From Parcubacteria group bacterium (GTDB lineage: Bacteria > Patescibacteriota > Minisyncoccia > Moranbacterales > UBA2206): 62,182 nucleotides of DNA. The first letter of the stretch is position 1, and each line of letters opens with the position of its first letter. The stretch is from assembly GCA_041675165.1 (NCBI GenBank), contig JBAYUI010000003.1, forward strand, positions 1 through 62,182, written 5' to 3'. Made by a program: the position numbers and the translations under genes. The notes under the pieces were generated by a model that was given only the letters and a program-made list of their open reading frames with translations, did no database searches and was not told where the DNA came from. Below are positions 5,405-60,344 of this stretch, one piece after another.

Positions 5405-5423
5405 AAGACTCTTTGAAAAATTA

Positions 5424-5972
5424 TTAAACCTCTTGTTTCATTAGTCCCTGACATTTGTCGCGCAACTTTTTCAATTTCGGATCGATCACGACCCGGCAAT
5501 AGGGCGAGTTTTTATTCCTTTCATAATATGAATGATGATAATCTTCGGCCGGATAAAATTTCGAAAGCATCCCGACTTCAGTCACAACATTCAGGCCATC
5601 TTCGGCCTTCAGTCCGGCGATAAATTTTTCCGCTTCTTCTTTCTGTTCAGCAGTTTTGCACAAGATGAGCGAACGATATTGTGTTCCCGCATCATTCCCT
5701 TGCCGATTGAGCGTGGTCGGATCATGCGTCGCAAAAAAGACCGTCAGGAGATCCTCAAAATGAATTTTAGAAGGGTCATATCCGATTTCAATCACTTCCG
5801 CGTGTCCAGTCCTTCCACTGGAAACTTGATCATAAGTCGGATCCTTTGTTTCTCCTCCGGCGTAGCCGGGATGCACCGACAATATTCCGCGCAGACGAGC
5901 AAAAATTGCCTCTGCGCACCAAAAGCATCCCCCACCAAAAACTATTTTTTCTTTTTTTATACTCTGAAACAT
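5424..5972 (-). CDS. msrA: Peptide-methionine (S)-S-oxide reductase
   Basis: GGGCFWC, GYAGG, HDPTTLNRQGNDAGTQYRS, AEDYHHSY; start uncertain (5972 or 6008). Confidence 0.96.
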   Translation of the reverse strand: MFQSIKKEKIVFGGGCFWCAEAIFARLRGILSVHPGYAGGETKDPTYDQVSSGRTGHAEVIEIGYDPSKIHFEDLLTVFFATHDPTTLNRQGNDAGTQYRSLILCKTAEQKEEAEKFIAGLKAEDGLNVVTEVGMLSKFYPAEDYHHSYYERNKNSPYCRVVIDPKLKKLRDKCQGLMKQEV

Positions 5973-16142: not shown

Positions 16143-17528
16143 TTATTTTTCGTCCGCCGGAGCATCGACGACTTCAGATCCTTCAGCTTCCTTCGGTTCG
16201 ACGACTGTTTCTTCACTCACAATTTTAGCTTTGTCTTCAACGATTTCGTCCGCTTTGCCTTCCTGTGCCTCTGTCTCTCCGCCGCCGACTTTGATTCCCG
16301 CAATATCGATCTTCCAACCCGTCAGCTTGGCCGCCAAGCGCACATTCTGTCCTCGTTTGCCGATCGCCAATGACAGTTGATCCTCCGGCACATGCGCCAC
16401 CGCCTCCTTCTGATCTTCATCAGTGTCCACTTTCAAAACTTTCGCCGGTGAAAGAGCGGCTGAGATGAATTTGGCGATATCCTTGTTCCAAAGGATGATG
16501 TCAATCTTTTCTCCGCCCAATTCATCGATGACCGCCTGCACCCGCGTGCCTTTTTGTCCGACGCAAGATCCGATCGGATCAATGCCTTCTTCGGAAGAAG
16601 CGACGGCTATCTTAGTTCTCTCTCCGGCTTCTCGAGCGATTGATTTTATCTCGACTGTCCCAGCAAAAATTTCCGGCACTTCCAGTTCGAACATCTTCTT
16701 CACCATTTCCGCATCCGTCCGACTCAAGGTTATCCCAGGACCGCGCGTACCGGCATCCACCTTAGAAACATACACTTTCAAACGCTGTCCGATGCGATAA
16801 TTCTCTCTTTCTATCTGTTCACTTGGGAAAAGCACGCCCACCGATTTTCCGATATCGATAAAAACATTGCGTCCTTCCACTCTTTGGACCACGCCGCTCA
16901 GAAGCTCACCTTCTTTATTCTTATATTCATCATACATCGCGTCTCTCTCAGCCTCCCTGATCCTTTGGATTATGACTTGCTTGGCAGTCTGAGCCGCCAC
17001 TCGGCCATAATCGCTCTTTTGCGGCAGTTCTATCTCAACAATGTCGCCAACTTTGGCATTTTTTTTGAATTCTTTGGCGTCGGCCACGATCAAATCACGC
17101 TCCGGATTGAAACGTGGCATTTTTTCCTCCTCATCTTCCGCAGCGGGAGCGGGAGCGGTTTTGTCAACATCTTCTTTATTTCCTTTCTCTGTTTTTTTAT
17201 CAGCCTTTTCCTCCCCGTCTTCCACTTCATCCGCGGCCTCCACGAATTCTCGCACCGTCTCATCCACCACCTCTTTCACTAAAAAGAATTTTGTAGCACC
17301 ACTCACTTCGTTGAAATCCGCCCGGATATTCTGGCCGCGCTTTCCATAATCCTTCTTGTACGCGGCCGCCAAAGCCGCTTCAATCGTCTCAATCACGCGA
17401 TCCTTGGAAATCCCCTTCTCTTCACAGAGTGCTGTAATGGCTCGGCCGAAATCTCCCGCGCCGCCTTCTTGATTATTTTCCTCCACTTTCACTTTTTTTC
17501 TTGGCATAAATTTTTTATTATTACTCAA
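16143..17528 (-). CDS. nusA: Transcription termination/antitermination factor NusA
   Basis: GRVAAQTAKQVI, AREAGERTKIAV, GSCVGQKGTRV, QLSLAIGKRGQNVRLA; acidic insert and tail. Confidence 0.98.
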   Translation of the reverse strand: MSNNKKFMPRKKVKVEENNQEGGAGDFGRAITALCEEKGISKDRVIETIEAALAAAYKKDYGKRGQNIRADFNEVSGATKFFLVKEVVDETVREFVEAADEVEDGEEKADKKTEKGNKEDVDKTAPAPAAEDEEEKMPRFNPERDLIVADAKEFKKNAKVGDIVEIELPQKSDYGRVAAQTAKQVIIQRIREAERDAMYDEYKNKEGELLSGVVQRVEGRNVFIDIGKSVGVLFPSEQIERENYRIGQRLKVYVSKVDAGTRGPGITLSRTDAEMVKKMFELEVPEIFAGTVEIKSIAREAGERTKIAVASSEEGIDPIGSCVGQKGTRVQAVIDELGGEKIDIILWNKDIAKFISAALSPAKVLKVDTDEDQKEAVAHVPEDQLSLAIGKRGQNVRLAAKLTGWKIDIAGIKVGGGETEAQEGKADEIVEDKAKIVSEETVVEPKEAEGSEVVDAPADEK

Positions 17529-24151: not shown

Positions 24152-24330
24152 TTCAAGCCCTGCGTAGCGGACGGGAACAAATTCAAGCGAACGAGCGTTA
24201 AGAATTTATTCATAATTAGATGTTAAGGGGAGTTAATAAATTTAGTGAGAGAGCGAAGAATTTGTCCGGACGCTGAGCTGGCTTGAGAGTTTTCTTTTGT
24301 TACTTTTCTTTTGCGGAAAAAGAAAAGTGA
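24152..24330. repeat. Long imperfect hairpin element ending in a cttttcttttg...aaagaaaag hairpin
   Basis: Nested pairings tcaagcc/ggcttga, acaaattc/gaatttgt, aatttatt/aataaatt with purine-rich internal loops. Confidence 0.55.
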
Positions 24331-24394
24331 AAGCTTTACATTCCCCCGCTTTAATGCTAGCCTGAAGAAAGTAACCAGCAAAATTATCTCGGAA

Positions 24395-29040: not shown

Positions 29041-29763
29041 TTATAGGGATTTAAGTTGTCTAACGGCATAATCGTATATCTTCTTATCAATTTCATACCC
29101 AATATACCGCCCGCCACGCCTCAGCACATGACAACCCAATTTCGCCGTTCCCATGAAAGGATCAAGCACCGTATCACCCTTTTTGAAATTACTCAGCATC
29201 AGGAATTTATCAATTATTTCCTGAGGAAATGGGCACGGATGCCTTTCCGTTAATTGTTCCATGCGATGATCTGGATATTTGGAATAATATATTTCTCCAT
29301 TTTTGAAATCGCAAGATTCTTTCTTGAAAATCAACCACTGCAAACAATTTGAATGATTCCCATCCGCACCAACCAAATTGAAATATTTTCCAAATTCTCC
29401 AATTGGATTTTCAATATAGTCACTTGCATCCATAAAATCAATATGCCGCGCCCCTAGAAACAACCCCGATTCAATGCAAAATGATTGAATCAGGCCAGCC
29501 AACTGCACGAAATACCCATCGCAAACAATCACATCAGCTGCTTCAATGATTGCGACTCCGTTCCGATTGAGAACGCGTGAGCACTCCGCCATGACATTTT
29601 TCATAACCTTAGAATATTGGCTGAGAGAATTTTTATCATGATATTCTCCAAAAATAAGGCCAACATTAAAAGGAATTGATGTGATTATAATATCCACGGA
29701 GTTACTTTCAACTTCTATCATTCTCTCAGAAGATTTATTGTATATAATCCAATTCTCTTTCAT
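29041..29763 (-). CDS. Beta-class N4-C/N6-A DNA methyltransferase-like protein with atypical motif IV (SIPF)
   Basis: VDIIITSIPFN, HPCPFP, VLDPFMGTA, YIGYEID in beta order; SD aagga before MKENW. Confidence 0.8.
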   Translation of the reverse strand: MKENWIIYNKSSERMIEVESNSVDIIITSIPFNVGLIFGEYHDKNSLSQYSKVMKNVMAECSRVLNRNGVAIIEAADVIVCDGYFVQLAGLIQSFCIESGLFLGARHIDFMDASDYIENPIGEFGKYFNLVGADGNHSNCLQWLIFKKESCDFKNGEIYYSKYPDHRMEQLTERHPCPFPQEIIDKFLMLSNFKKGDTVLDPFMGTAKLGCHVLRRGGRYIGYEIDKKIYDYAVRQLKSL

Positions 29764-29909
29764 AGCACCGTCCTTTTTCAGTTGATTTTTAAACAACTCT
29801 CTTTTCCCATCCCAACAAGCCATTATACCTGAAAATAAACTACTTGTCCATGATGTGGTTGTTTTATTATTTATTTCTAGTATATCTATGCCATTTTATC
29901 TCTTATTTA

Positions 29910-29938
29910 TTGACATTTCACCCACTTTTTGCTATACT
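29910..29938 (+). promoter_or_regulatory. Sigma70-type promoter for the TrmB-family gene
   Basis: ttgaca-N17-tatact. Confidence 0.75.
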
Positions 29939-29973
29939 GTATTTGATGACCGTTTTTTGGACATTTAATAATT

Positions 29974-30702
29974 ATGCTGCAAAAGAAACTGCAACAATTG
30001 GGTTTTGAAGAAAAAGAGGCGACGCTCTATGCCGCTCTCTTGGAATTGGGCGAAGCGGGCGTGGTGGATATCGCGCGAAAATCAGGCCTCAAAAGAACAA
30101 CTGTCTATCACATTTTAGACAACCTGAAGCTGCGTGGGCTTGTCAGTCAAACCAAAAAAGGCAAGCGAGTCATCTATCTCGCCGAAGACCCTCACTCTAT
30201 CGGAGAAGACCTGAAAGAAAAAGAAAAACTTTTTCAAAAAACATTGCCTGAACTTTTGTCGATTGCCAACCTGATGGAAAAGAAACCCATCATTAGATAT
30301 TTCGAAGGCCTAAATGGCATTAAAGAAGTTTATAAAGACGAACTAAAACAGAGCAATAGCGAACTTCTATGTTGGTGGGCAGAAAGTTATGAAATTTTTG
30401 GAGATGCTTTTGTAATTGATTACTATATGCCGGAACGCATAAAAAGAAAGATTTGGAACCGTTCAATTGTTCCGAAAAGTGAATACGCCCTTTATCATAA
30501 ACGATTTGACCAAGAAAGTTTGCGTCAGATCAGAATTGCCCCACTCGATCCTATTTTCGCCGAACTAGAACTTAGCCTTTATGCAAATAATAAAACATCC
30601 ATCAAATCCTTCCAAGAAAAATTCGCCCTCATCATCGAAAGCAAGGCACTCTACAATACGCTGAAAAATATTTTCGAATTACAGTGGAAAGGTCTAAAAT
30701 AA
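29974..30702 (+). CDS. TrmB-family transcriptional regulator (paralogue 1)
   Basis: LGFEEKEATLY.ALLELG...IARKSGLKRTTVY.IL..L...GLV; RYFEGLNGIKEVY. Confidence 0.88.
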   Translation: MLQKKLQQLGFEEKEATLYAALLELGEAGVVDIARKSGLKRTTVYHILDNLKLRGLVSQTKKGKRVIYLAEDPHSIGEDLKEKEKLFQKTLPELLSIANLMEKKPIIRYFEGLNGIKEVYKDELKQSNSELLCWWAESYEIFGDAFVIDYYMPERIKRKIWNRSIVPKSEYALYHKRFDQESLRQIRIAPLDPIFAELELSLYANNKTSIKSFQEKFALIIESKALYNTLKNIFELQWKGLK

Positions 30703-30765
30703 AGTGAATTTTATTTATCTATTTACTGTATTATACTAAACAATAGATATCTAATCCCAAATTTT

Positions 30766-31614
30766 ATGAACATTGGTTGTCATGTATCAATTGCAGGAGG
30801 AATTTTCAACGCTCCAGAGCGTGCGGCCGACCTTGGTGCGGAATGCTTCCAAATCTTCACCCGCTCCCCGCAGGGTGGCAAAGCGCCAGAATTAACGCCT
30901 GAAGTTTTAGAAAAATTTTCCGCTGAAATGAAAAAACATAAGCTGGAAAATTTTGTCGTACACACGCCCTATTACATCAACTTCGTTTCCGCCAACAATC
31001 GCGTGCGCTATGGCTCAGTTTCGGTCGTGCGTGACGAACTGGAACGCGCTTCCCTTCTCGGCGCCAGATTTGTTATGACCCATCTGGGCAGTGCCGGCGA
31101 CTTGGACGAAAAAGAGGCCACCGCCAAAACCGCCGAGATGATCGCCAAAACTCTGGACGGCTATACTGGCTCGACCGAACTCCTCATCGAAAATGCGGCT
31201 GGTGCCGGTCATATCATGGGCGCCACATTTTCACAAATTGCGGAAATCATTAGGCTCGTCAACCACCCAAAACTAAATGGGATTTGTATGGACACCCAAC
31301 ACTCCTTCGCCTCCGGCTACGATTGGCGCAAACTTAATGATGTACGGACAGGTCGCGACCTGTCCCTCCTTGAACAAATCGACCAAGAAATCGGCTTAAA
31401 AAAAATAAAACTCATCCACGCCAACGATTCCCTGACTGAATGCGGCTCCAAAAAGGACCGCCACGCCCACATCGGCGAAGGACTCATCGGTGCTGATGCT
31501 TTTCAAAATATAGTCGCCTTTGCCGAAAAGAATAATATCGATATGATTTTGGAAACGGAACATGGCAAAGTGGTGGAAGATATTGAACTGCTAAAATCTT
31601 TTCGCGCAAAATAA
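30766..31614 (+). CDS. nfo: Endonuclease IV
   Basis: IGCHVSIAGG, FQIFTRSPQ, VHTPYYIN, LIENAAG, CMDTQHSFASGY, IHANDS, DRHAHIGEG, ILET. Confidence 0.96.
   Translation: MNIGCHVSIAGGIFNAPERAADLGAECFQIFTRSPQGGKAPELTPEVLEKFSAEMKKHKLENFVVHTPYYINFVSANNRVRYGSVSVVRDELERASLLGARFVMTHLGSAGDLDEKEATAKTAEMIAKTLDGYTGSTELLIENAAGAGHIMGATFSQIAEIIRLVNHPKLNGICMDTQHSFASGYDWRKLNDVRTGRDLSLLEQIDQEIGLKKIKLIHANDSLTECGSKKDRHAHIGEGLIGADAFQNIVAFAEKNNIDMILETEHGKVVEDIELLKSFRAK
31342..31369. repeat. REP-like palindrome inside nfo
   Basis: gtac-ggacaggtcg|cgacctgtcc-ctcc; perfect 20-bp core at 31346-31365; encodes VRTGRDLSL. Confidence 0.65.
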
Positions 31615-32175
31615 TTTTTCTATCAGTTGTGGCAGGCGCTGACTGCTGAATCTTTTTAGATATTTTTTGATCTTATCTTTGTCTAACAACTTCAAATTCA
31701 TTTCTGCCGCGTCAAATTTGGCATAGCCATTCAGCGACAGATAAGCCAGATCCAAAAAAGCTTTCTCTGGTTCAGCGACTAAATAATTTTCTTTAAGCAT
31801 GTAGCCAAAATATAAATCTTTTTGTAGGTGGCGATAATTGATAATCTTATCCCCGATTTCTAAAGTTTTGGCCCGTTTCACAGTGACCAGCGTTAAGGCA
31901 TATGTCTTTTGGCTCAAAATATCATCTTGCCCTAAGACCCACTCTAAAGATAAATAACTCGGCGCATAAATTTCCAACGCCAATTTCGGCCAATCAACCT
32001 TGGCTTTATCCAGGCAATAATAGCCTTTTGCTAACGGACTTAATTTTCCAGCCTTAACCAAGCGACTGACCGTCACGCGTAAACTCGCGTCGTCCAGCTG
32101 CGCAATCTTTCGCAGATCAGAAAAAGTAAAATAGCTTTTCTGGATCTTATTCAGTTGTTTTTCCAAGTTGCTCAT
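31591..32175 (-). CDS. abiEi: Type IV TA antitoxin, AbiEi-like (wHTH)
   Basis: YFTFSDL...LRVTVSRLVKAGKL..LAKGYY; PSYLSLEWVL; AEPEKAFLD. Confidence 0.82.
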   Translation of the reverse strand: MSNLEKQLNKIQKSYFTFSDLRKIAQLDDASLRVTVSRLVKAGKLSPLAKGYYCLDKAKVDWPKLALEIYAPSYLSLEWVLGQDDILSQKTYALTLVTVKRAKTLEIGDKIINYRHLQKDLYFGYMLKENYLVAEPEKAFLDLAYLSLNGYAKFDAAEMNLKLLDKDKIKKYLKRFSSQRLPQLIEKLFCAKRF

Positions 32176-32842
32176 ACAATTGTCTTATGACTGGATAATA
32201 TTTCTTTGGCAAAAAAACTTTCAGCTCATTTTCAAATTCTCTTTTTCGGTACTGTGGTGTTTTTTTTGGCATCACAAAATTTTCTCGCAAAGTCTGGGCA
32301 ATATACCACAAGTCAAAAATGTCTCGCCCCTTCTTGCGTCCCGCCAGAGCTGCTTCTTTCAATCGTTGTAATTCTTTAAGTGTCGGCACGAGTAGCAGCG
32401 GTTCCGCCGCACTCATCGGACTTTTCACCAGCGCTAATTCTGTTTCTATTTTTGGTTTATGCTCAGGCTTATGCGCCTCAATCTTAATCGAAAACGCATG
32501 CTTCAGTTTTTCATCCTTGAGATTGATTAGCGCGAACATTGTCTGACGTTTATCCTTGATATCTTTCAATGTCCAGCTATCTTGTCTTTCCATCAAGCTG
32601 GCTATAAATTTTCCAAATTCAGCAAAGCTCGTTTTTTTCATCACTAATAAATCGATATCTTCTGAAAATCTGGGCGAACCATACACCAGGCGCAAAGCTG
32701 TGCCGCCATAAAAAACCCACTTGGCGCTCAGTTTATCCTTGGCGAACTCAGCCAAAATCTCCATTTCCGCCTCTTCCCTCAGGATCTGGTCGCGCGCAAT
32801 CCCCAATTCCCGAATATATTCATTTAATTGATTTTCGTTCAT
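32147..32842 (-). CDS. abiEii: Type IV TA toxin, AbiEii-like nucleotidyltransferase
   Basis: FYGGTALRLVYGSPRFSEDIDL, K..AL.GR..GRDIFDLW; overlaps abiEi. Confidence 0.88.
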   Translation of the reverse strand: MNENQLNEYIRELGIARDQILREEAEMEILAEFAKDKLSAKWVFYGGTALRLVYGSPRFSEDIDLLVMKKTSFAEFGKFIASLMERQDSWTLKDIKDKRQTMFALINLKDEKLKHAFSIKIEAHKPEHKPKIETELALVKSPMSAAEPLLLVPTLKELQRLKEAALAGRKKGRDIFDLWYIAQTLRENFVMPKKTPQYRKREFENELKVFLPKKYYPVIRQLYEQLGKTTE

Positions 32843-35774: not shown

Positions 35775-35781
35775 AAAATTG

Positions 35782-35855
35782 AGGTCGCGGTGGGATTTGC
35801 ACCCACGAAATAGCGGTTTTGCAGACCGCCGCGTTAGCTACTTCGCCACACGACC
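35782..35855 (-). tRNA. tRNA-Cys(GCA)
   Basis: GCGGT-CTGCAAA-ACCGC; U discriminator; 5' end overlapped by the LAGLIDADG ORF. Confidence 0.93.
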
Positions 35856-36571
35856 TTATGCTTTTTTATTATTTTTTTCACCTCCTCATCGCTTCTTTTC
35901 GGCCTCAAAATAAAATATTCACAAAATTTTACATATTTTCTTCTTAGAAATTCTAACCCCTTTTTGCCGTAGATAAATTTAAAAATCTTTATACTATCCT
36001 CAGTCGAAAAAGCCAACATAAAAGATTTACATCCGTTATAAACTTTTTCTTGCTTAGTGTTTATAATATTTTTTGTTTTTTTAGCCAACGCTTCTAAAAA
36101 TTCTTTACTACCGCAAGTAAACACGACCCTTAGCCCCTTTATTATCTCCTCATCATCTTTATTCCTCCCCTTTCTTAATAATACACAGCCATCCCCATCA
36201 AAATATCCCAAAATAAAACTACTTAAATATTTTTTCGGTACATCTGGAAATTTTATTGTTAAAGATTTTTTCGGGAATAATCCAAGCCTCGTTAAATCAT
36301 CATACAAGACATGACTTCCGATTCTTAGAAGATATTGTTTTTGTCTTTTACTGTTAGGATGTTCCGTTTCAATTATATTATGTTCGGAAGATAGCCACTT
36401 TTTTATTCTTAATATATTTTCTCTGTCTACACTAGAAACCCTGACATATTTACCACGCAGATAACTAGCATCTTCAAGACTGCCATCAGCATATAAATAC
36501 CCCAAAACGTAGGCCATCTTATGCGACCATCTTTTGAAAAAATTTTCATTCACAGCATACTTTATTCCCAT
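35834..36571 (-). CDS. Free-standing double-motif LAGLIDADG endonuclease-like protein
   Basis: AYVLGYLYADGS and SFILGYFDGDGC motifs; AT-rich. Confidence 0.9.
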   Translation of the reverse strand: MGIKYAVNENFFKRWSHKMAYVLGYLYADGSLEDASYLRGKYVRVSSVDRENILRIKKWLSSEHNIIETEHPNSKRQKQYLLRIGSHVLYDDLTRLGLFPKKSLTIKFPDVPKKYLSSFILGYFDGDGCVLLRKGRNKDDEEIIKGLRVVFTCGSKEFLEALAKKTKNIINTKQEKVYNGCKSFMLAFSTEDSIKIFKFIYGKKGLEFLRRKYVKFCEYFILRPKRSDEEVKKIIKKHKVVWRSS

Positions 36572-58724: not shown

Positions 58725-60344
58725 TCACTCCACGTGATATTTATGCTTAATCAATTTTTCTTCCTCTTTCTGTTCTTCTTTGATTTTTTCTTTCGCTTGT
58801 CTTCGCAAATCTTCGACATCTTCCTTGTCTAATTCCTTGGCGCGGGAAAGTAATTTCTCTTTGTCATTGAGATTAGCGTCTTCAATCACTTCTGCAAGTA
58901 ATACATCCAAAATAGTTCCAATCTTTGGTCCGGGTTTCATTTTGAGTTCGGACATCAAATCATTGCCATTGATTTTGAGCTGCTTGACTGACACCGCGTC
59001 ATGCGAAACTTTTTCCACCATGAATTTGAAATGGCGCAGCTTATACGGCACCGCTTTCGGTACGCCACTCCCCAATCGGTCAGCAATCCGCACGTCGATC
59101 AGATCATTGATGTTTTCCAAACCGACTTTCCGCACCACACGACGCACACCCGCTTCGCCCACTTCGTCGACGTTATAATAGAACATATGATTTCGCACAA
59201 GCAAAACTACTTTTTCAATGACTTTGGTCGAGAAGCGCAGTCTCTTCAAAATCTGTTCCGCCATCCGCGCGCCGACATATTCGTGATTGTAAAATGTAGC
59301 ATTCTCTCCTTGCCCCCGTTTCACATTTGGCTTCCCCACGTCATGCAGCAGCGCCGCCAAACGCACTTCTAATTTAGGCGATGGACATTTTTCCAGACTA
59401 GCGATGAGATGTTTATAAACTGTGTTGTAGGGACCATAATAATGATGATGGCTCTGTGTCACATCATACCCGATTTCAACTTCCGGCATGATAAATTGCA
59501 AAAGTCCGACTTCGTGCAACATCTCCATGCCCGCCGCCGGTGCCGGCGATAAAATTATTTTCTCAAATTCATCATGAATTCTTTCCTGCGAAATGTATTT
59601 TAAATTACCCGCATTCTTTTTGATAGCTGCAAAAGTATTTTCCTCAATGGTCCACCCCCTCCCCGTTGTATTCCCCTTCCCCTGTAACCAGGGGAAGGCT
59701 GGGATGGGGTTGTTGGGGAGGTGTCCCGACGTACTCGTTGGGACGGAGGGGTTGAGGAGTTGGCACGCGAACCGCACTGCCCGCATCATCCGAAGTGCAT
59801 CCTCATCAAATCTCTCCTCCGCCCCCCCCACTGCCCGAATAATTTTATTCTCCAAATCTTTTTGTCCGCCAAACAAATCAATCAACTCTAAGTCTGCCCC
59901 CTCCCCTGTACTCAGGGGAGGGCTGGGGAGGGGTTGAGAAGCGTCAGAAAAAATTTTCAGCGCCATCGCATTCATCGTAAAATCTCTGCGCGACAAATCT
60001 TCTTCCAAAGTATCGGCGAATTTAACTTCATCCGGATGCCGTTTATCGGAATATTTCGACTCGATCCGGTACGTTGTCACTTCCACCACGCCCAAATCTT
60101 CTTCTTTACCAGTCAGATATTTCACCGGCAACATCACTGTCCCAAATCCATTCTCATATTTACCATCCGGAAAAATTTGCAGCACATTTTCCGGCTTGGC
60201 TGAAGTCGCAATGTCCCAGTCCTGCGGCTCTTTTTGAAGTAGTATATCCCGCACGCAGCCGCCCACCAAATACGCCTCAAAACCAGCCTCTTCAAGAGCT
60301 GTCACGACTTTCTCAATATATTCTGGGATTTTTATCTTTTCCAT
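58725..60344 (-). CDS. cca: CCA-adding tRNA nucleotidyltransferase with HD domain, carrying in-frame palindromic inserts
   Basis: LVGGCVRD, DWDIAT, EVTTYR, DLSRRDFTMNAMA, RFDEDALRMMRAVRF, SQERI..E, LLHDVGKP. Confidence 0.93.
   Translation of the reverse strand: MEKIKIPEYIEKVVTALEEAGFEAYLVGGCVRDILLQKEPQDWDIATSAKPENVLQIFPDGKYENGFGTVMLPVKYLTGKEEDLGVVEVTTYRIESKYSDKRHPDEVKFADTLEEDLSRRDFTMNAMALKIFSDASQPLPSPPLSTGEGADLELIDLFGGQKDLENKIIRAVGGAEERFDEDALRMMRAVRFACQLLNPSVPTSTSGHLPNNPIPAFPWLQGKGNTTGRGWTIEENTFAAIKKNAGNLKYISQERIHDEFEKIILSPAPAAGMEMLHEVGLLQFIMPEVEIGYDVTQSHHHYYGPYNTVYKHLIASLEKCPSPKLEVRLAALLHDVGKPNVKRGQGENATFYNHEYVGARMAEQILKRLRFSTKVIEKVVLLVRNHMFYYNVDEVGEAGVRRVVRKVGLENINDLIDVRIADRLGSGVPKAVPYKLRHFKFMVEKVSHDAVSVKQLKINGNDLMSELKMKPGPKIGTILDVLLAEVIEDANLNDKEKLLSRAKELDKEDVEDLRRQAKEKIKEEQKEEEKLIKHKYHVE
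59655..59752 (-). repeat. Nested palindromic insert in cca (outer element containing a 39-nt inner element at 59673-59711)
   Basis: Coding strand cccctcc-gtccc..gggac-acctcccc [aaccccatcccagccttcccct-ggttac-aggggaagggg] ..ggggaggggg; encodes PSVPTSTSGHLPNNPIPAFPWLQGKGNTTGRG. Confidence 0.8.
59897..59935 (-). repeat. 39-nt palindromic insert in cca
   Basis: 33/39 identical to 59673-59711 with a compensatory C-G to T-A stem change; encodes QPLPSPPLSTGEG. Confidence 0.85.

Follow-up and report, generated by a model that had tools for sequence, protein, structure and literature searches.

The cca gene of a Parcubacteria group bacterium (GenBank assembly GCA_041675165.1; Patescibacteriota, Moranbacterales) contains three in-frame copies of a structured DNA repeat. 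The gene lies on contig JBAYUI010000003.1, and the whole stretch that was analysed, positions 1 to 62,182 of its forward strand, is called the window here. One short-form copy is found at site 1, and site 2 holds an outer long-form copy together with an inner short-form copy. We consider it likely that these inserts are copies of a repeat which is dispersed and belongs to the intrastrand triplex motif (TM) class, that they arrived as insertions and are probably translated, with a nuclease of the DUF559 family as our best guess for a partner. The class comprises BoxC, the PIT elements (Hoyne and Maher 2000, cited in PMC4666352) and the TM repeats of Escherichia coli, termed TMECO (Holder et al. 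2015, PMC4666352).

The three copies share the same basic anatomy. Read along the G-rich strand, they consist of a pyrimidine arm, its complementary purine arm beyond a 4-nt loop and, after a turn of 2 nt, a purine tail in mirror order to the purine arm. The short form has 39 nt (13 codons), and the long form has about 60 nt (20 codons) with a second small hairpin placed between the purine arm and the tail. The plus strand, antisense to cca, is the G-rich one at site 1. A repeat search of the window returned two 45-nt copies, 59668-59712 and 59892-59936, that are 82% identical and each contain a perfect 10-bp hairpin; at site 1 the segments CCCTCCCCTG and CAGGGGAGGG pair in 10 of 10 positions, and the inner unit likewise pairs in 10/10. 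The 39-nt cores (59673-59711 and 59897-59935) are identical in 33 of 39 positions. The six differences of the inner unit from site 1 are two loop bases, a C>T exchange in the C-arm, the pairing G>A exchange in the G-arm and two bases of the tail. An initial annotation, which was made from the sequence alone, had given the same identity and had claimed a compensatory stem pair, and the C>T / G>A exchange is this pair. The tail changes are at mirrored positions, so the C-arm, the G-arm and the tail show a three-way covariation. The loop change of the inner unit converts TGA to TGG in the frame in use, and the inner-unit variant was found again in the locus L124.

The hairpins of the units are more stable than those of shuffled sequences, with z-scores of -2.6 to -3.3. 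The chance expectation for the full 39-mer in the window is 0.00, and no further copies of the 39-mer core were found in the 62-kb window. With a general triplex-motif finder, which recovered the window units with no more than one mismatch in total over 8 triples, the two units were obtained and no other G/C-rich match in the 62 kb; 20 shuffles gave 0 matches, so that a chance origin can be dismissed. The only other candidate that the window yielded is A/T-rich (TTTCTTTT..AAAAGAAA..), was detected on both strands and is located at 24305-24345, at the start of a DUF4446 gene.

The inserts had initially been read as palindromic elements. This description is incomplete, because the G-rich tail mirrors the G-arm, which places the units in the intrastrand triplex motif class. 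The two possible registers of the tail were compared in 181 units, namely those with a G-rich tail from all loci collected, with the arms anchored on TG/CA and with G on G-C and A or T on A-T as the allowed triples. In the mirror register 96.9% of the triples were isomorphic, and 88.8% were so at the informative A positions, whereas the direct-repeat register reached 89.1% of the triples and 61.7% at the A positions. The tail as a direct repeat of the G-arm, which would allow an alternative hairpin, was rejected for this poorer fit. The variable pairs of G-arm and tail, which were left free in the search pattern, were found to covary, GGGGAGGG with GGGG[A/T]GGGG and GGGGGAGG with GGG[A/T]GGGGG. 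A G-quadruplex (G4) as the conserved feature was rejected as the primary reading, since the common GGGGGAGG/GGGAGGGGG variant contains a GG run and is nevertheless mirror-symmetric.

The units have the hairpin by which the class is described, in which a pyrimidine block pairs with its purine complement over 6-15 nt and the loop measures 1-6 nt (PMC4666352). The third block of the window units mirrors the purine block, as in the class II purine motif, with GGGGAGG / GGAGGGG in the outer unit, and the repeat is dispersed and multicopy in reference genomes, in metagenomes and by the word depth of the source run. That the mirror register is kept across phyla is comparative evidence for selection on the third-strand interaction. 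In single-stranded DNA, the tail would lie back on the hairpin as a third strand with G.G-C, A.A-T and T.A-T triples, and we infer such a triplex folding for the window sequences. In vitro, a triplex of the class II purine motif is formed by the TMECO sequence (PMC4666352).

At site 2, a long-form unit of about 60 nt has a variant short unit of 39 nt in the loop of its first hairpin, and ~60 + 39 account for the 99 nt. The nested composite of about 98 nt that had been proposed at 59655-59752 was right in its nesting and its fold, but its bounds are better placed at 59653-59759 with a net 99 nt. The outer architecture recurs in L132, L135, L140 and L160. At the position of the second small hairpin, homologous hairpins (CGACGTAMTCGT) are found in L132, L135 and L140, and a different hairpin in L160. 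The long form also occurs alone, inside a HypF-like open reading frame (ORF) in L132 and just upstream of the DUF559 genes in L135, L140 and L160. On another contig, the aminotransferase gene of L124 contains this nested composite with the same junction and inner-unit variants, and the composite was therefore copied as a whole. The junction type TG[TC]ATT precedes the inner units in L124, L151 and L132 as well. In the compound copies of L151 and L132 the join follows the CTGGG(G) in the tail of the unit before it and is not in a loop. Units do tend to sit in or beside other units, but a specific preference for hairpin loops, which had been suggested from the nesting, is not borne out by the composite propagated whole in L124 and the tail joins in L151 and L132.

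The insertion status was followed in the CCA-adding enzymes of Moranbacteria and related bacteria of the Candidate Phyla Radiation (CPR). Apart from one outlier of 722 aa, these enzymes are 487 to 624 aa long, and nearly all of the variation in length falls at the two sites. The orthologue P0002 (L002), which is 80% identical, has the site 1 unit with one stem mismatch, and its site 2 is empty (QL-NF-TIE). P0005 has neither insert, and P0004, which comes from the same sample as the window, has unrelated A/T-rich inserts. Relatives without the inserts, with the site 1 unit only or with different inserts confirm that the extra sequences of the window gene are insertions. In two further orthologues TMECO-like units were observed, at site 2 in L162 (CCCTCTC..GAGAGGG TTG GGGTGAG) and at site 1 in L163. 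These belong to another subfamily, which indicates that different subfamilies independently reached the same two CCA loops. Assembly artefacts or chimeras at the repeat have next to no probability as the source of the inserts. Logan contigs do break inside the unit, but an independent ENA contig matches the window with 0 mismatches across the gene, the site 1 unit of P0002 stands on 19 contigs from ENA, JGI and Logan samples, and the frame is preserved throughout.

Inserts of a second family, A/T-rich and likewise in frame, were observed, with peptides such as ISNFKFQISNQ, FQFPISNQFSNSNDKISKQ and KSQISNSKLQN (L005, 2290-2400 and 2520-2610). In other Moranbacteria this family occupies the two CCA loops of sites 1 and 2, and LigA, FemAB and HypF-like genes contain it as well (ORFs in L132, L134, L149 and L151).

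The enzyme that hosts the inserts is probably functional, as had been proposed initially, judging from the open frames, the intact catalytic motifs and a confidently predicted fold. Its domains according to Pfam are the PolyA_pol head, the RNA-binding domain, HD and tRNA_NucTran2_2, and all residues that are invariant across 70 orthologues are present. In comparison with the solved CCA enzymes 6ibp and 1miv, extra sequence follows NAMA and RF..QL, in line with the positions first given for the inserts. The AlphaFold model computed with the 70-sequence alignment has a mean predicted local distance difference test (pLDDT) score of 83.3. Its only segments with a pLDDT below 50 are 144-149 and 200-228, which lie between the strands 128-131 and 152-155 and between the helices 184-195 and 235-250, respectively. 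Both inserts fall in these sole two low-confidence segments and are predicted to occupy disordered surface loops. With ARAGORN, 13 tRNA genes were found in the window, of which 3 encode CCA and 10 do not, correcting the earlier count of 4 in 14; since 10 of the 13 are without an encoded CCA, the enzyme is still needed.

Outside the window, many copies of the 39-mer were found inside other genes. The site 1 unit is 39/39 identical to several of these, and one such identical copy lies in frame in the Dus gene of a reference metagenome-assembled genome (L063). Near-identical 39-mers were present in about 15 other gene families on low-GC, Moranbacteria-like contigs. The host genes assigned by Pfam are Dus, TGT, LigA, HypF-like, class I aminoacyl-tRNA synthetase, Fpg, FemAB and PP-loop/TilS-type genes, and further UvrA, UvrB, reverse transcriptase, aminotransferase, GalT and Fe-hydrogenase-like genes. 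A CPR-type pattern matched 29 metagenome stretches, most of them at 34-46% GC and with at least 17 copies from one sample. In a profile search of 366 kb of low-GC loci 29 distinct full units were recovered, 28 of them in long ORFs; 17 of the 29 were in C-sense and 12 in G-sense orientation. Four frames are in regular use, with the peptides QPLPSPPLxTGEG, TPPQPSPxYRGGG, PLPCxQGRAGEGL and PSPVxRGGLGRG. A fifth frame normally contains a TGA and is used only by the inner unit of the window, after its change to TGG. The persistence of the units in genes is explained by their lengths, which are multiples of three, by five of the six frames being free of stops and by two enzyme loops that tolerate extra residues.

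Two kinds of host gene gave additional observations. In the Dus orthologues the same site is occupied by an intact unit in L063 (7605-7643) and by a decayed, expanded unit (NPLHCTQERCPASGGTEGL) in L137 (2934-2992), and a unit at a second site of the L137 gene is without a counterpart in L063. A reverse transcriptase ORF in L145 (387-1451, minus strand; RVT_1, YADD motif) has an in-frame unit ahead of its GLPLG motif. In L131, an ORF in which a reverse transcriptase-like YADD motif was recognised by eye has its 5' end a few hundred nt from a unit near 5418-5452.

The repeat is also abundant in the source sample and widespread beyond it. In the landfill metagenome run that holds the window contig, the word depth was 365-595 over the unit and 8-9 in the flanks, a ratio of about 40-70x. 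In the same run, the unit is also matched by contigs whose flanks are different, and assembly breaks occur within it. A looser pattern applied to reference genomes matched more than 117 stretches among the matches listed, nearly all with the full three-block architecture. The taxa among the matches listed were Xanthomonadales, Devosia, Rhodospira, Chloroflexota, Armatimonadota, Acidobacteriota, Cyanobacteria, Bacteroidota, Phycisphaerae and Eremiobacterota. A near-identical core was observed in intergenic DNA of many phyla as well. A phage as vehicle of the repeat was considered and not adopted; among 2.9 million viral contigs there was one motif match (L152, 242-264; IMGVR_UViG_3300015692_000002). 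In Xanthomonadales (L061, L072, L074, L085 and L086; Rhodanobacter, Dyella and Stenotrophomonas) the units form tandem arrays with 156-192 bp spacing, and these arrays consist of inverted doublets with a conserved spacer, resembling REPINs, the doublets of repetitive extragenic palindromic (REP) sequences.

This distribution bears on two other explanations for the presence of the inserts in cca. They could be kept for a function in cis, in DNA or RNA, and tune the expression of cca by polymerase pausing, a G4 or mRNA stability. The G-arm and tail of site 1 do form a textbook G4 motif (GGGG A GGG CT GGGG A GGGG), the hairpins beat the shuffled controls, and every unit seen in cca has its G-rich strand on the template strand. 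Yet the unit occurs in about 15 unrelated gene families and in both orientations, close orthologues manage without it, and the second common variant retains its mirror symmetry with a weakened G4. PIT elements, moreover, have neither promoter nor terminator activity in E. coli (PMC4666352), and we regard a cis function as very unlikely. Alternatively, the peptides might have been selected as adaptive loops of the CCA enzyme, the DNA structure being incidental, and the same two loops are indeed expanded in many orthologues. It is, however, the DNA that is conserved and not the peptide, since different hosts read the 39-mer from either strand and in four to five frames; its core is intergenic in many phyla and the inserts are disordered by prediction. 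An adaptive role of the peptides is therefore highly improbable. The dispersed repeat that entered the gene as DNA is the reading that we prefer.

The link to DUF559 had been put forward tentatively, as an association with a DUF559/Vsr-like endonuclease, and it held in the collected loci: a DUF559 gene adjoins units in every lineage examined, including the loci selected by protein and ycjD of E. coli. Among the motif-selected loci, five DUF559 genes were identified by tblastn and a hidden Markov model (HMM), and all five are within about 170 nt of a unit. In L140 the family of the ORF beside the units was confirmed by Pfam. The bias of motif-selected loci was removed by fetching DUF559 contexts by protein identity alone. 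In the loci obtained in this way, L155, L157, L159 (Portnoybacteria), L160 (Gracilibacteria) and L161, units are present on both sides of the DUF559 gene. The upstream one is in G-sense orientation and no more than about 90 nt from the ATG, the one in C-sense orientation directly follows the stop codon, and the unit sequences are lineage-specific. In L155 and L157 the flanking units were the only G/C-rich units detected in 17-20 kb. In Xanthomonadales, the DUF559 gene is located between inverted doublets. The ycjD gene of E. coli K-12, which is annotated as DUF559, is 168 nt away from TMECO no. 9, one of the 18 TMECO loci in the genome. We take ycjD to be the sole DUF559 gene of this strain. 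Downstream of ycjD, at 11200-11440 of L153 (NC_000913.3, ~1351200-1351440), TMECO no. 9 is found with a degenerate hairpin overlapping the ycjD stop codon. A duplicated fragment of the ycjD 3' end is present there as well, and the whole layout resembles the scar of a rearrangement at the unit.

As inverted units bracket the gene in all lineages that were examined, a small DUF559 nuclease (Vsr-like, PD-(D/E)XK fold) is our best guess for the partner enzyme that copies the units. Such a nuclease would cut at or near the folded units, and repair or strand-copying would then spread them, as the REP-associated tyrosine transposase (RAYT) relates to REP/REPIN. When compared with transposable elements of the miniature inverted-repeat type (MITEs), which have target-site duplications and terminal inverted repeats that match a parent IS, the DUF559 cassettes carry inverted units at each of their ends; DUF559 is not known as a transposase. 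In a limited library, no paper was found that links these repeats to DUF559 or to CPR coding regions, and a literature search with the literal unit sequence returned only an unrelated herpesvirus G4 paper.

The units might instead spread without DUF559, for example by template switching, by slipped repair at stalled forks or by some transposase, and DUF559 would then be a selfish or homing-type gene that lands in units. In L140 and L154, the 3' half of a long-form unit is present as a direct repeat on either side of the DUF559 ORF, which gives the impression of an insertion into such a unit, and the DUF559 gene is at single-copy depth versus 100-200x for the units. Holder et al. further tie TMs to replication-associated instability (PMC4666352). 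The inverted layout, with the G-sense unit upstream and the C-sense unit downstream, speaks against a mere landing site, as it recurs in Portnoybacteria, Gracilibacteria, Moranbacteria and Xanthomonadales with lineage-specific units; this recurrence fits a coevolving enzyme and substrate equally well as the landing-site model. We judge the spread without DUF559 to be rather unlikely, and a DUF559 nuclease as the partner of the units is retained.

Several points weigh against the account of an inserted, translated triplex repeat with a DUF559 partner. The translation of the inserts as Pro/Gly-rich disordered loops is probable, as judged from the open frames only. A stable triplex was seen by Holder et al. 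neither in double-stranded DNA nor in vivo, and they found no tie of the motifs to mobile elements (PMC4666352). In the 62-kb window itself no DUF559, HUH/RAYT or transposase genes were found by Pfam in about 50 ORFs and by tblastn and HMM for DUF559. The check for adjacent nuclease or HUH genes that the initial annotation had proposed thus gave no DUF559, Y1_Tnp or transposase match there. A DUF559 contig from the same sample (L154) has a depth of 12-14 compared with 8-9 for the window contig; with this mismatch L154 probably represents another genome, and its assignment to the genome of the window was rejected as not probable. All three units of the window gene and the single units in three orthologues share one orientation, which points to a possible constraint. 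Among the loci collected, no filled/empty pair was close enough for the junctions to be read.

Tentatively, and with a wider scope, it is possible that DUF559 proteins of the YcjD type are the missing partners of the BoxC/PIT/triplex-motif repeats across bacteria. The cassette of about 0.5 kb, a DUF559 gene between inverted units, would be the autonomous or domesticated source, solo units would be its REP- or MITE-like offspring, and the stop-poor version of 39 or 60 nt would have colonised CPR coding sequence. If this is true, essential enzymes (CCA, Dus, TGT, LigA, UvrA/B) of gene-dense CPR genomes carry translated repeat copies. BoxC, PIT and TM repeats have been known for decades without a mode of spread or a function, and their mode of spread is now testable. 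With ycjD beside TMECO no. 9 there is a concrete candidate enzyme in a model organism, and DUF559 genes are bracketed by units from E. coli to Gracilibacteria. The repeats can live inside genes, and the length and codon content of the CPR form look shaped for coding sequence. This would be a second, independent case of the 'selfish DNA in proteins' known from Rickettsia. The units also break assemblies and inflate the length variation of CPR proteins, which affects annotation and the alignment of orthologues.

The coordinates of the gene and of its repeat units are collected in Table 1. Some other features of the window were observed. A LAGLIDADG_3 homing-endonuclease-like ORF (35834-36571, minus strand) abuts or overlaps with its 3' end the tRNA-Cys gene (35781-35855), beside tRNA-Leu. 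An N6/N4 DNA methylase, a TrmB-type regulator, an AP endonuclease 2 and an AbiEi/AbiEii toxin-antitoxin pair are clustered at 29041-32842, and this cluster adjoins a low-GC stretch at 33-34 kb (GC 0.32). The NusA N-terminal domain ORF at 16143-17528 (minus strand) contains about 50 additional aa of acidic low-complexity sequence, an insertion without relation to the repeat.

Table 1. Positions in the window of the cca gene and of the repeat units inserted in it
Feature	Position	Strand	Sequence and description
cca gene	58725-60344	minus	539 aa, class II CCA-adding enzyme with HD domain; host of the inserts
Site 1 short-form unit	59897-59935	+	39 nt = 13 codons; C-arm CCCCCTCCCCTG, loop TACT, G-arm CAGGGGAGGG, turn CT, mirror tail GGGGAGGGGTT (plus strand); read as QPLPSPPLSTGEG, aa 137-149
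Site 2 composite	59653-59759	+	Net 99 nt = 33 codons compared with the orthologue whose site 2 is empty; read as LNPSVPTSTSGHLPNNPIPAFPWLQGKGNTTGRGW, aa 197-231
Outer long-form C-arm	59655-59664	+	CCCCCTCCCC; pairs with 59715-59721 in the DNA fold
Junction leader	59665-59672	+	GTTGTATT; between outer C-arm and inner unit
Inner short-form unit	59673-59711	+	C-arm CCTTCCCC, G-arm GGGGAAGG, tail GGGATGGGG
Outer G-arm	59715-59721	+	GGGGAGG
Second small hairpin of the long form	59723-59744	+	GTCCCGACG TACT CGTTGGGAC; between G-arm and tail
Outer tail	59745-59759	+	GGAGGGG, exact mirror of the G-arm GGGGAGG; then TTGAGGAG

The repeat was finally compared with known systems. The Rickettsia palindromic elements (RPEs), reportedly described by Ogata et al. 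in 2000 and mentioned in PMC1779305 and PMC10969869, are said to be A/T-rich, about 100-150 bp long and confined to Rickettsia. Like them, the window repeat is structured, stands in frame in housekeeping genes of a small, gene-dense genome and adds surface peptides while the function is kept; for the cca gene, with net inserts of 39 and 99 nt, an in-frame insertion with retained function is what the sequence and the model predict. RPEs are set apart in that they are not known to have a mirror tail or a sequence relation to the window units. The likeness to RPEs that had been noted initially therefore stands for the behaviour, the in-frame addition of peptides to an intact enzyme, but not for membership in the sequence family. 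We know of no partner enzyme for RPEs. The small dispersed repeats (SDRs) of cyanobacteria, attributed to Elhai et al. in 2008, are reportedly hairpin repeats of <40 nt that are apparently mobile, often nested and without a known enzyme. They resemble the window repeat in size, hairpin form and nesting, a likeness by description alone that we take as a lead. A search of Rfam with both strands of 59400-60200 gave only sub-threshold noise and no family match.

The REP/REPIN-RAYT systems are similar in their short hairpin repeats, the inverted doublets, a single small enzyme gene that is bracketed and hundreds of solo copies (PMC3116915, PMC3733652). Unlike REPs, which are extragenic by definition (PMC3116915, PMC3733652), the window units have no GTAG or CGTC tag and no Y1 (HUH) transposase, and the gene that is bracketed elsewhere encodes a DUF559 nuclease of the PD-(D/E)XK type. 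The closest comparison is with BoxC, PIT and TMECO, which have in common with the window repeat the three-block anatomy, short loops, a high G/C content, strong conservation, a multicopy state and a frequent arrangement in inverted pairs. The units in the CCA orthologues L162 and L163 (GAGAGGG TTG/TTA GGGTGAG) nearly match the TMECO consensus (CCCTCNCCC N3-6 GGGNGAGGG N3 GGGNGAGGG). The window units (GGGGAGGG CT GGGGAGGGG) do not match it, as they have a different arm sequence and a second loop of 2 nt, and on their sequence they are a sister subfamily of TMECO. TMECO is 'always intergenic' in E. coli and has no known means of spread, and a link to a nuclease is not mentioned (PMC4666352). In contrast to TMECO, the window repeat has a long form with an extra hairpin, forms nested composites, keeps a fixed length of 39 or about 60 nt, and resides inside ORFs, where it is probably translated.

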